The notes under the pieces were generated by a model that saw only the letters and a list, made by a program, of their open reading frames with translations, did no database searches and had not been told where the DNA came from. Of a DNA stretch of 56,994 bases, positions 1,235 through 38,100 are shown piece by piece. Source of the stretch: Bacillales bacterium UBA5578. Lineage in GTDB: Bacteria > Bacillota_I > Bacilli_A > RF39 > UBA660. The DNA lies in NCBI GenBank assembly GCA_002425325.1, contig DIMA01000018.1, forward strand, positions 74,259-131,252, given 5' to 3'. Made by a program: the position numbers and the translations under genes. The stretch's first letter is position 1. Each line of letters starts with the position of its first letter.

Positions 1235-1924
1235 TTATAATATTATTGATACTAATTGTATTATAAATGAGAATGTATTATTTATCATATGTAGACTTAT
1301 TGGAACACATATATTATCTGATTTATATAATGTATAAGCTAATATACAACCAGGTGCTCCATAAGGAATAATATAAATCCATTCTACTAAACTTTGAGCA
1401 CTACCAATTAAATGCATTGATCCAAATATTAATCCAGATAATGCTATAAATACAATTGGATATTTTTTTAATATTTTATAGAAAGATAATCTAAATACTA
1501 ATTCTTCTAATACTGGTGCTATAAAGCAGACAAATGCACATGATATAAAAGGAGAAGATTTAATTAGATCTCTTATTGATTGCTCGTTAGCGGCTATTTC
1601 TAATCCTACTATTTTCATGATTAATGCATTAGAAATATACATTACCATTAACATTAAGCCATAATATTTAATATATTCACCTAAGTATTTTAATGGTTTA
1701 GAAAACCATTCTTTAGTATCTTTAATTACTTTTTTATGCAATATTAATAAAAATAATAATAATTGAATAAACTCATAACCTATAGTTAAAATATTTTTTG
1801 CGATTTCTGACCACGTAGAATAATCAAATGGCAATAAATTTAATATCAATCCAGCAAATGTAGTTGTTAAAAAATATAAAGCTATTACTGATATACCTTG
1901 AATTGTATCTTTAACTTTATTCAT
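1235..1924 (-). CDS. CPBP/Abi (CAAX protease-like) intramembrane metalloprotease
   Basis: Multi-TM protein with APVLEELVFR, FGSMH and ISLHMINN motifs. Confidence 0.9.
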   Translation of the reverse strand: MNKVKDTIQGISVIALYFLTTTFAGLILNLLPFDYSTWSEIAKNILTIGYEFIQLLLFLLILHKKVIKDTKEWFSKPLKYLGEYIKYYGLMLMVMYISNALIMKIVGLEIAANEQSIRDLIKSSPFISCAFVCFIAPVLEELVFRLSFYKILKKYPIVFIALSGLIFGSMHLIGSAQSLVEWIYIIPYGAPGCILAYTLYKSDNICVPISLHMINNTFSFIIQLVSIIL

Positions 1925-33987: not shown

Positions 33988-34090
33988 TAATTCTTTTTTT
34001 TTGTCGTATTTTGGTTATAAATAAATACTTTATTTTTTATTATAAATATGTTAAAATTGTAGTAGATTTATGCTAAGGAGGATAGCAATT

Positions 34091-34519
34091 ATGGGATTAA
34101 TGAATAAACTATTTGATGGAAATGAAGAAAAAGATATTTTTGAAGATAATGGAAAACAATTTGAGGATCAATATTATGAATCTTCAAAAGATTTAAAAGC
34201 AGATGATATTAATGGTAAAGATGGATCTAAAATGATTTTATTAGAGCCACGTGCATTTTCAGAAGCTCAACAAATTACAGATCAATTAAAAAGAAGAAAT
34301 ACTGTAGTTATTAATTTAAAAAGAGTAACTTCTGAACAAGCAAAAAGAATTATTGACTTTGCTTCAGGATCAACATATGCCTTAAAAGGAAAAATTGAAA
34401 AAATTGGTAGTGGAATTTTCTTATGTACTCCAAATAATATCAATATTCAAGGTAAAATATCTAGTGATAAAGATGATAATGATACTTATGATAATGATGA
34501 TATAGAAATTGATATTTAA
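34091..34519 (+). CDS. sepF: Cell division protein SepF (start moved to 34091)
   Basis: LLEPRAFSEAQQITDQLK, VVINL, RIIDFASGSTYALKGKIEKIG..FLCTPNNI. Confidence 0.93.
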   Translation: MGLMNKLFDGNEEKDIFEDNGKQFEDQYYESSKDLKADDINGKDGSKMILLEPRAFSEAQQITDQLKRRNTVVINLKRVTSEQAKRIIDFASGSTYALKGKIEKIGSGIFLCTPNNINIQGKISSDKDDNDTYDNDDIEIDI

Positions 34520-34576: not shown

Positions 34577-34999
34577 ATGGAAAAGTTTACTACAACACTT
34601 CGTGGTTATGATAAAGAAGAAGTAAATGAATTTATTGATAAAATTATTGCTCGTATTGAATCAATGGTAACAGAAATTGATGATAAAGATAAAGAAATAT
34701 CTAATCTAAAAAATAAAATAGATGAATTAGAAAAGTACGTTGAAAAATTAAAAAATCAAAGTATGAATGATATGGAAATATCTCAAGATATTATTAAGAA
34801 AGCTAAAGATGAAAGCGAAAAAATAATTAAAGATGCAAATTTAAATGCAGATATTATAATTAACGAATGTCTTATGAAAGCTAAAAAGTATGAGATTAAA
34901 GTTAATAAATATAAAAATGATTTAAAGTTATTAAAGCAGAAGAAGGAGACGTTACTTAGCGGAACTAATAGAGAGTCTATGGTTGGTGGAAATAGATAG
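34577..34999 (+). CDS. divIVA: DivIVA domain protein
   Basis: FTTTLRGYDKEEVNEFIDKI plus coiled coil; sepF-divIVA-ileS synteny. Confidence 0.88.
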   Translation: MEKFTTTLRGYDKEEVNEFIDKIIARIESMVTEIDDKDKEISNLKNKIDELEKYVEKLKNQSMNDMEISQDIIKKAKDESEKIIKDANLNADIIINECLMKAKKYEIKVNKYKNDLKLLKQKKETLLSGTNRESMVGGNR

Positions 35000-35127
35000 G
35001 GAAACTTAGTAAGAATCACTCTGGATGTGTTATTACCGGTTACGCGTTATAGTATTAAGTGCATAATAGTATTATGAATTAGGGTGGTACCGCGATTATT
35101 CGTCCCTAAAACATAATACTTTTTTTA
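34936..35127 (+). ncRNA. T-box riboswitch leader (Ile, specifier AUC) of ileS
   Basis: AGAGAG bulge, tctat/ataga stem with GGTG loop, specifier ATC at 35015-17, Stem III, T-box aattAGGGTGGTACCGCG (35077-94), antiterminator 3' strand CGTCCCT. Confidence 0.92.
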
Positions 35128-35147
35128 TTTATTAGAGGAGGTTTATT

Positions 35148-38100
35148 ATGAAATTTGAAGAATTAGATAAAGAACAAGTAAGTAAAGTTGAACGTAAGAT
35201 ATTAGATAAATGGTTAAAAGATGATATCTTAAATAAAACTATTGAAAATAGAAATGGTAAAGATAACTTTGTTTTCTATGATGGACCAGCAACAGCAAAT
35301 GGAATGCCTGGATTACATCATATGTTAGCAAAATTTTTAAAAGATTCATTCTGTAAATATCAAACTATGAAGGGTAGTAGAGTTCTTAGAAAAATAGGAT
35401 GGGATACTCATGGGTTACCAGTAGAAGTTAATGTAGAAAAGAAATTAGGTTTCTCAGGTAAAAGTGATATTGAAAAATATGGAATTAAAGAATTTAATGC
35501 TTTATGTAAAGAAACAGTTTGGGATAATGAAAATGCTTTTAGAAAATTAACAGAAGAAATGGGACAATTTATCGACTTAGATAATAGATATATTACATAT
35601 GATAATGATTATATTGAAACTGAGTGGTGGATATTAAAGAAATTCTTTGATGAAGGTTTATTCTATGAAGGAGTTAAGATATTACCATGGTGTCCTAGAT
35701 GTGGAACAGGATTAGCTTCACATGAAGTAGCTCAAGGTTATAAAGAAATAGATGCTAATACTGTTACAGTTCCATTTAAGAAGAAAGATGAGGATGTTTA
35801 TTTCTTAGTATGGACAACTACACCTTGGACATTAATTAGTAATGTTGCATTATGTGTTAACCCTAAAGAAACTTATGTTAAAGTTGAATCTAAAGGATAT
35901 AAATTTATCTTAGCTGAAGCATTAGCGCAAGCTAATTTAGGTGAAGAATATGAAGTATTAGAAACATATAAAGGTATTGATCTAGAAAATATGGAATATG
36001 AACAATTAATTCCATCATTAAAAGTAGATAAAAAAGCTTTTATTGTTACTTGTGATGATTATGTTACTATGTCAGATGGTACTGGTATTGTTCATATCGC
36101 ACCTGCATTTGGTGAAGATGATGCTAAGGTAGGTAGAAAATATAATTTACCATATTTAAATCCTGTAAATGAAGATGCTACATATAATGATGGATTATGG
36201 AAAGGCATGAATATCTTTGATGCAGATTTAGAAGTAATTAAATATTTAAAAGAAAATGATAAATTATTTAAAAAGCAAAAAGTTAAACATGATTATCCAC
36301 ATTGTTGGAGATGTAATTCACCATTAGTATATTATTCAAGACCTTCATATTATTTAGAAGTTACTAAGTTACAAGATAAAATAATAGAAGAAAATAAAAA
36401 AGTAAATTGGTTCCCATCATACGTTGGAGAAAAGAGATTTGGAAATTGGTTAGAAAATATGAATGATTGGGCTATTTCTCGTAATAGATATTGGGGAACA
36501 CCACTTCCATTATGGAGATGTTCTTGTGGACATATGGAAATGATTGGTTCTAGAGAAGAATTAAAAGAAAAAGCAATAGAAGAAGTAGATCCTGCAACAA
36601 TAGATTTACATAGACCATTTGTTGATGATGTACATATTGAATGTCCACATTGTAAAGAAAAAATGACAAGAGTACCAGAAGTAATCGATTGTTGGTTTGA
36701 TAGTGGAGCTATGCCATTTGCTCAATACCATTATCCATTTGAAAATAAAGAGTTATGGGAAGAACAATATCCTGCTGACTTTATAGCAGAAGGAATTGAC
36801 CAAACTAGAGGATGGTTCTATTCATTAATAGTAATTGGTGTATTCTTAACTGGTAAGAGCCCATATAAAAATGTATTAGTTAATGAATTATTATTAGATA
36901 AATATGGTCATAAAATGCATAAGAGTAAAGGAAATGCTATTGAACCATTTACTACTATGGAAAAATATGGAGCTGATACAATAAGATTCTATTTAGCTTA
37001 TGTATCACCAACATGGACACCATTAAAATTTGATGAAGAAGGATTAAAAGAAGTTCATTCTAAATTCTTTAATCCATTAAAGAATACTTATTCTTTCTTC
37101 CAAACATATGCAAATATCGATAATATTGATATAAAAGAATGTATGGTAAAAGAAAGTGATAGAGAAGAAATAGATAGATGGTTATTAAGTAAATACAATA
37201 AATTAATTGATAATTGTACTAAAGCATATGACAAATATGATTTAAATGAAGTAGTTAAATTAGCTACAACATTTGTATCAGATGATTTATCAAATTGGTA
37301 TATTAGAAGAAATAGAAATAGATTCTGGTCATCAGAGTTAGATAATTCTAAGAAGAGTGTATATATAACTACATATGAAGTATTAGAAGGAATTTGTAGA
37401 TTAATTGCGCCAATTGTACCATTTGTAACAGAAGAAATATATACTAAATTAACAGGAAATGAATCAGTTCATTTAGCTGATTTCCCTGTAGTAAATAGCG
37501 AATTAATTAATGAAGATATAGAAGTTCGTATGGACTTAGTAAGAGATTTAATTAGTTTAGGAAGAAATATTCGTGAAGAAGTTAAAATTAAGGTTAGACA
37601 ACCAATTAGTGAATGTTTAATTGATGGTAAAAATGAATCTATTATTAGTGATTTAACTCCATTAATTGAAGAAGAATTAAATGTTAAAACAGTTACATTT
37701 ATAAGTGAATTAGAACAATATATGAATTTAACTGTTAAACCAAACTTCAAAGAAGTTGGACGAGTATTTGGACCAAAGATTAAAGTATTCCAAGAAAATT
37801 TATTAGCTTTACCAATGAGTGATATTAAAACATTACAAAATAGTGGTTCTATAAAAATGGATATTGATGGTGAAGAATATGAAGTTACATCTTCAATGGT
37901 TGAAATTAAAACAAGTTCAAAAGAAGGATTTGACGTTGCTACAGATACAACAAACTTCGTTATATTAAAAACTGAATTAACAGAAGAATTAATATTAGAA
38001 GGTATTGCTCGTGAAGTAGTAAGTAAAGTTCAAAATTTAAGAAAGACTAGTGGTTTTGAAATAGCTGATAGAATAAATTTATACTATAGAGCTGATGAAT

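Follow-up and report, generated by a model that had tools for sequence, protein, structure and literature searches.

The ileS locus and its T-box leader

The stretch of DNA analysed here (56,994 nucleotides, hereafter the window; contig DIMA01000018.1, positions 74,259 to 131,252, of assembly GCA_002425325.1) comes from Bacillales bacterium UBA5578, a 1.2-Mb, 91%-complete metagenome-assembled genome (MAG) with 24.4% G+C. In it the genes sepF, divIVA, and ileS follow one another (Table 1), and ileS, which encodes a type-2 isoleucyl-tRNA synthetase (IleRS), is preceded by a leader with an isoleucine T-box. This leader is likely to be a T-box riboswitch of the transcriptional class (class I) with a rewired expression platform, in which docking of Stem III would decide against a terminator whose lower stem recruits one strand of Stem III itself. 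Its ileS relatives belong to uncultured gut Bacilli, whose sources were rumen, rabbit, Hadza, and chicken samples.

Table 1 Genes and leader elements around the start of ileS, with positions counted from the first nucleotide of the window.
Feature	Position	Strand	Basis and remarks
sepF	34070-34519		
divIVA	34577-34999	+	Pfam DivIVA; final 69 nt also serve as the 5′ portion of Stem I
T-box leader (RF00230), Stem I through antiterminator	34931-35110	+	Rfam cmscan, 102.9 bits, E = 1.2e-21, model 1-219
Specifier codon AUC (Ile)	35015-35017	+	Rfam alignment and sequence reading; in specifier loop GAAUCA, followed by purine A35018
Purine string AAGUG (RRRxG motif)	35057-35061	+	Sequence, motif as in PMC7583486; 5′ flank of Stem III
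Stem III	35062-35076	+	Rfam alignment; CAUAAU 35062-67, loop AGU 35068-70, AUUAUG 35071-76
Putative terminator 5′ strand AGUAUUAUG	35068-35076	+	Minimum free energy fold and comparison; Stem III loop and 3′ strand
AA linker, Stem III to A1	35077-35078	+	Faces AA 35110-11 in the terminator fold
Antiterminator (A1, bulge, A2)	35079-35109	+	Sequence, Rfam, fold
Helix A1 UUAGGG/CCCUAA	35079-84/35104-09	+	
T-box bulge UGGUACC, 7 nt	35085-91	+	UGGN at 5′ edge, then ACC; columns invariant in 48 leaders
Helix A2 GCGA/UCGU	35092-95/35100-03	+	G35092-U35103 wobble beside the bulge
Putative terminator 3′ strand CAUAAUACU	35112-35120	+	Almost repeats the 5′ strand of Stem III, 3 nt longer
U-tract U7	35120-35126	+	Sequence; directly after the stem (stem end 35119/35120), 21 nt before ATG
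Shine-Dalgarno GAGGAGG of ileS	35135-35141	+	Sequence
ileS, type-2 isoleucyl-tRNA synthetase, 1031 aa	35148-38243	+	Pfam tRNA-synt_1, Anticodon_1, DUF5915

As far as sequence goes, the leader at 34931-35110 is confirmed as a genuine Ile (AUC) T-box in front of a type-2 ileS. Its RF00230 match lies above the gathering score of 93 bits, the specifier reads AUC, and ileS is found downstream, which bears out the isoleucine T-box called in an initial annotation of this DNA; all coordinates given there also proved correct when checked against the sequence. The specifier, assigned from sequence, agrees with the downstream ileS and with the rule that specifiers have C at the third position (PMC7583486). 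Stem I is full-length when aligned to RF00230 and has the platform motifs AGAGA and GGUUGGUG (distal loop) for the tRNA elbow, with the leader letters AGAGAG and GGUUGGUGG falling on conserved platform positions of the model.

The discriminator motif has been described as 5′-RRRxG-Stem III-AA-3′, and the discriminator anatomy of the leader agrees with the structural literature in all elements (PMC7583486). The AA linker, corresponding to the conserved 3′ flank of this motif, is invariant in 57/57 leaders of the Stem III type defined below, and the isolated Stem III hairpin is worth only -0.6 kcal/mol. The antiterminator, which the initial annotation had described as intact, is so, since A1, the UGGUACC bulge, and A2 can all be read at 35079-35109; in an alignment of 48 leaders, A1 was paired in 97.9% and A2 in 92.2% of cells.

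A predicted terminator that shares a strand with Stem III

In class I T-boxes the A1/A2 3′ strands usually serve as the 5′ strand of the terminator, a feature that is absent from the window ileS leader. Neither an AGGGACG-like strand nor any other partner for the A1/A2 3′ strands was found downstream in this leader, and a generic consensus terminator scan of the leader returned nothing. We rejected a canonical terminator overlooked by the initial annotation, as none appeared in the generic scan, the minimum free energy (MFE) fold, or the ensemble; the absence of a canonical terminator stated there therefore stands.

The MFE fold holds only one terminator helix. Within 35040-35160, GUAUUAUG pairs with CAUAAUAC, the intact antiterminator is enclosed, and U7 comes next. 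The two strands at 35068-76 and 35112-20 are perfectly complementary, and the equivalent stems of relatives are followed by U-runs of 5-9. Furthermore, in Stem III-type leaders the duplex between the A1/A2 3′ strand and the strand before the U-run has a mean of only -2.2 kcal/mol, compared with -10.6 kcal/mol in canonical ones. The most economical reading of these predicted folds is that A1/A2 are present in both states, and that the mutually exclusive pair would be Stem III and the lower terminator stem.

Comparative support for the Stem III wiring

The ileS loci of 29 relatives were obtained by genome search and 26 of them were scanned with Rfam (L020 and L021 are among the unscanned); a T-box was present in 26/26 of the scanned relatives. 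Leaders were assigned automatically to a geometry class according to the strand with which the 8 nt immediately preceding the U-run pair. In most relatives, the strand before the U-run is complementary to the 3′ side of Stem III and changes along with it, for example gcattcataa/TTATGGATGC, acttaagt/GCTTAAGT, atctatg/CATAGAT, and agttcataaa/TTTATGAACT. Among the ileS leaders of relatives (n = 26), 19 were assigned to the Stem III side and 1 to the T-box 5′ strand, the rest being canonical, including those of distant class members. A further set of ileS leaders from named MAGs (n = 77) comprised 36 of the Stem III side, 22 of the T-box 5′ strand, and 19 canonical leaders. Altogether, Stem III wiring was present in 57/108 distinct leaders examined, and across these 108 leaders the strand preference of the pre-U segment separated the three classes cleanly.

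Pairing was counted in 48 distinct leaders of the Stem III type, picked by MFE class and aligned with MAFFT. Standard pairing in the eight pairs of the lower stem occurred in 93.4% of cells, and 6/8 pairs had changed on both sides. When the partner strand was slid by 1-3 columns as a control, pairing fell to 37-54% overall. Compensatory changes can be seen in AUUAUG/CAUAAU, UUCAUA/UAUGGA, CUCAUG/CAUGAG, UCUAUG/CAUAGA, and CUUAAG/CUUAAG. Stem III was paired in 79% of cells, with 4/6 pairs changed on both sides. Because the 48-leader set had been selected by MFE class, alignment-independent controls were added. Duplexes between the Stem III side and the pre-U strand had a native mean of -5.65 kcal/mol, versus -2.01 kcal/mol with swapped partners, and 32 of the 108 unselected leaders lay at or below the swapped-pair 5th percentile, about 5 being the expected number. 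The comparison strongly supports a Stem III strand-exchange terminator, which had been the first of two options in the initial annotation: the MFE fold, the lower-stem pairing with its covarying pairs, and the swap controls all favour it, and many relatives keep the pairing with compensatory change.

The wiring had been taken for a peculiarity of ileS, and this did not hold, as in the window genome 8/11 T-boxes were assigned to the Stem III side, with 2 canonical ones and 1 of the T-box 5′ strand. A congener has 4 T-boxes of the Stem III side, 4 canonical ones, and 1 of the T-box 5′ strand, and in genomes of two other families the Stem III side was assigned to 2/10 and 3-4/10 T-boxes. In a class-wide sample with the best T-box per genome, 21/28 were canonical and one was clearly of the Stem III type. 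By these assignments, Stem III wiring is not specific to ileS; it is dominant in the window genome and recurs across several families of low-GC gut Bacilli.

Energetics and proposed mechanism

For the core of the window leader, the ON fold (Stem III with A1/A2) was computed at -10.9 kcal/mol and the OFF fold (lower stem with A1/A2) at -18.4 kcal/mol. The OFF-minus-ON gap was -6.3 kcal/mol for the Stem III type, -6.4 kcal/mol for canonical leaders of the clade, and -7.7 kcal/mol for the T-box-5′-strand type; since the first two match, the thermodynamic drive of Stem III-type and canonical leaders is equal. Stem III itself is worth -1.9 kcal/mol in Stem III-type leaders versus -3.8 kcal/mol in canonical ones, and the lower stem is longer than Stem III by 3.3 pairs on average, chiefly through extension into the former loop.

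In the classical switch, the freed 3′ strands of A1/A2 build the terminator (PMC7583486, PMC10907184). Stem III and its purine flanks are indispensable to binding of the tRNA 3′ end, and charged tRNA upsets how Stem III is positioned (PMC7583486, PMC10907184). In the window leader, the intrinsic terminator would be a long interrupted hairpin of about 19 pairs, with 35068-76/35112-20 as the lower stem and the unchanged antiterminator as the upper part. Uncharged tRNA-Ile would place its anticodon on the specifier and its 3′ end on the UGGU bulge; the RRRxG-Stem III-AA purine latch would then dock, and Stem III would be kept in the compact discriminator fold until the polymerase clears the U-tract. 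When tRNA is absent or charged, the weak six-pair Stem III would stay undocked. The nascent CAUAAUACU, kept near by the preformed A1 across a 2x2 AA/AA loop, would then work its way up from the base and displace the 5′ strand of Stem III, and the invading strand would win three extra pairs in the former loop, with the terminator completed at the U-tract.

Several points weigh against this proposal. The antiterminator forms part of the terminator hairpin, and a tRNA that stabilises A1/A2 could for this reason in principle favour termination, so the model requires that Stem III docking be dominant. Once A1 is complete, only about 2-11 nt remain before the invading strand emerges. The lower-stem duplex is AU-rich, is worth -7.5 kcal/mol, and sits beneath the 2x2 AA/AA internal loop, features that could bear on its efficiency as a terminator. 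The single-sequence fold is only mildly better than chance (z = -2.18; 7/200 shuffles fold equally well), and the case for the terminator therefore rests on comparison, in which the selection of the covariation set by MFE class counts as a weakness that the unselected swap test mitigates. No promoter was identified upstream of the T-box, where a consensus scan gave fewer hits than in shuffles, and an alignment of the upstream region with relatives displayed conservation of divIVA coding only, with no conserved promoter visible. Finally, ARAGORN predicted 28 tRNA genes in the assembly, three of them CAU tRNAs, and found no gene for the cognate tRNA-Ile(GAU), in which A73 as discriminator base would pair with the U of UGGU, among these 28 of the 91%-complete MAG. 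The tRNAs of rRNA operons are often left unassembled, and the missing gene probably reflects unassembled rRNA operons in this MAG.

Alternative explanations

The hairpin might terminate transcription while antitermination bypasses Stem III, either because the tRNA bends or unstacks the hairpin or because the element is a near-constitutive attenuator or stability element with a decayed T-box. Such a reading draws on two facts, namely that classical exclusion logic is absent with the antiterminator inside the terminator hairpin, and that the cognate tRNA gene was not found in the assembly. We consider it unlikely, as the tRNA-contacting motifs (specifier, platform, UGGN bulge, RRRxG, and the AA present in 57/57 leaders) are all intact and conserved, and Stem III wiring controls several essential aminoacyl-tRNA synthetase (aaRS) genes within the window genome. 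The bulge also lies about 17 nt up the stem, remote from the lower pairs that drive termination. Furthermore, the strand that invades is in every case directed at the 3′ strand of Stem III and changes in a compensatory way, and this constant targeting would be unexplained if Stem III had no role.

An additional translational layer, specific to the window, has a poorer standing still and seems improbable. It would arise if 35112-26 or the freed Stem III 5′ strand paired with the Shine-Dalgarno (SD) sequence and UAUUAUG (35144-50) in read-through transcripts. The terminator 3′ strand and the U-tract (35112-26) can indeed pair with the SD and the start-codon UAUUAUG (35134-50) more strongly than the A1 3′ strand can pair with the SD: the hairpin at 35112-35150 has -9.8 kcal/mol, versus -3.4 +/- 1.7 kcal/mol in shuffles (1/300 as good), among 1034 gene starts in the genome the pairing takes rank 18, and folding of the full leader predicts an SD that is 98% paired. 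However, this pairing is not conserved in 25 orthologous leaders with Stem III wiring, where the median rank is 0.32 (also the rank in the closest relative) and only 3 leaders lie below 0.05. Pairing of a U-tract with purines is generic and depends on G-U pairs, the U-tract alone as a probe ranking 111 of 1034, and the SD/AUG match is partly a trivial consequence of CAU/AUG. Although significant in the window, sequestration of SD and AUG by 35112-26 was rejected as a conserved feature, and we take it for a coincidence confined to the window or a small embellishment.

Translational control as in actinobacterial ileS, with the A1 3′ strand UCCCUAA pairing with UUAGAGGA and hiding the SD unless uncharged tRNA holds the antiterminator, can practically be set aside: the pairing of TCCCTAA (35103-09) with TTAGAGGA (35132-39), the second option of the initial annotation, does exist (seven pairs with one bulged A, -7.8 kcal/mol), but the translational role proposed for it was rejected, as the duplex ranks 210 of 1034 SD/start regions of the genome with the same probe, which is not above chance, folding of the read-through leader gives it a predicted pair probability of 0, it would need opening of an A1 that is stable in both other folds, the hairpin with U7 sits between antiterminator and SD, and the long Stem I with its AGAGA and GGUUGGUG motifs is unlike the translational class.

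Geometries of the terminator and evolution of the expression platform

Orthologous ileS leaders have three terminator geometries, using the Stem III strand, the T-box 5′ strand, or the canonical strand. In the T-box-5′-strand geometry, the T-box 5′ strand itself (e.g., GGUGGUACCG) has as its partner a CGGUAUCAUC that lies downstream and immediately precedes the U-run. It was seen in L008 (genome G020), in L040 (contig C8 of the window genome), and in 22/77 loci among L042-L121. The resulting terminator sequesters the tRNA-binding bulge and leaves the A1 3′ strand in the loop, with a duplex mean of -11.3 kcal/mol.

On an IleRS tree inferred with FastTree for 91 classified leaders, at least 16 changes among the three geometries were counted, and with shuffled labels 30-36 changes were counted in five of the 200 shuffles. 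Given these two figures, the platform is clustered but labile. We slightly favour a broader view, in which the discriminator couples to the terminator via any of three strands. In Stem III wiring, A1/A2 would be constitutive and nucleate the terminator, and the decision would be read solely by Stem III docking; this wiring would dominate in AT-rich small-genome lineages, with at least 16 exchanges among ileS orthologs.

Four T-boxes of the window genome (L031, L032, L034, and L035) are 90-99% identical in their 3′ modules, from Stem III to the U-run, versus 57-70% in their 5′ parts. This difference in identity suggests that the expression platform has been copied, duplicated, or homogenised among them.

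Neighbouring genes and related loci

In nearly all relatives (L002-L027), the stop codon of divIVA sits next to the first T-box bases or shares some of them, and the divIVA frame reaches 69 nt into Stem I in the window (34931-34999) and likewise in L017. Between divIVA and the T-box there is no intergenic space for a promoter. Some relatives (L003-L007, L011, L019, L022, L024, and others) have a gap of about 560-615 nt from the U-run to ileS and carry there, between Ile T-box and ileS, a gene for a 180-aa protein with a CYTH domain (Pfam PF01928, E = 1e-8). From its location between the two, this gene would fall under Ile-tRNA control.

Another arrangement concerns a T-box with an Asn specifier (AAC) and a canonical terminator, which stands directly before one or two tRNA-Asn(GUU) genes and no protein gene. 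It occurs on contig C27 of the window genome (L033; tRNA at 1403-1478, minus strand), where the tRNA-Asn then has its own hairpin, and in genome G008 (L156; 1762-1916). This T-box looks like one that controls a tRNA gene.

Comparison with known systems

The textbook T-box model holds that tRNA is sensed through a stabilised antiterminator that shares a strand with the terminator. Such strand sharing is absent in most T-boxes of the window genome, where Stem III alone is contested. Full-text searches and reading of the main T-box reviews, TBDB, and recent mechanistic papers turned up the canonical geometry only; the older comparative literature (Vitreschak 2008, Gutierrez-Preciado 2009, Kreuzer and Henkin 2018) may mention such terminators. 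If the proposed switch is true, it would be a natural case of separation of function, in which tRNA-dependent docking of Stem III is sufficient for a transcriptional outcome. It would also explain why the OFF state is missed by standard terminator finders and T-box annotation pipelines in AT-rich genomes, and would mean fast turnover of the expression platform under a sensor that is itself conserved. For engineered tRNA-responsive switches, it would offer a compact AU-rich design rule.

All sensor features place the leader in the T-box family, but it lacks the classical overlap with the terminator. Like class I T-boxes (Bacillus subtilis tyrS and glyQS; RF00230), it has a long Stem I with a specifier loop and tRNA-elbow platform motifs, a discriminator of RRRxG-Stem III-AA with A1, the UGGN-ACC bulge, and A2, a predicted U-tract terminator in front of an aaRS gene, and an OFF-minus-ON energy gap of similar size. 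Unlike in these T-boxes, the A1/A2 3′ strands stay paired, and the 5′ strand of the predicted terminator is the loop and 3′ strand of Stem III, which is why the antiterminator is nested in the terminator.

The leader shares the ileS target and the discriminator core with the translational T-boxes that precede ileS in actinobacteria (Mycobacterium tuberculosis, M. smegmatis, and Nocardia farcinica). In those T-boxes a pre-formed antisequestrator/antiterminator helix persists while another part of the discriminator makes the decision (PMC10907184); a pre-formed helix that persists through the decision is a further likeness. On the other hand, Stem I of the actinobacterial elements is short or ultrashort, they lack a U-tract terminator, and their A1/A2 3′ strand forms a sequestrator over the SD, whereas the window leader has a long Stem I with platform, a predicted U7 terminator, and SD pairing at background.

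The leader also resembles ligand-gated strand-displacement platforms, such as the ZTP riboswitch (cited in PMC13001445), and four-segment attenuators, in which a downstream copy of one strand of an aptamer helix nucleates at one point and invades that helix if the ligand has not locked it. It differs from ZTP-type platforms in that a tRNA serves as ligand, invasion concerns a peripheral discriminator stem and not the ligand-pairing helix, and the arrangement is known here from sequence alone. As in the logic of a four-segment attenuator, segments 1:2 (Stem III) and 2:3 (the terminator) would alternate.

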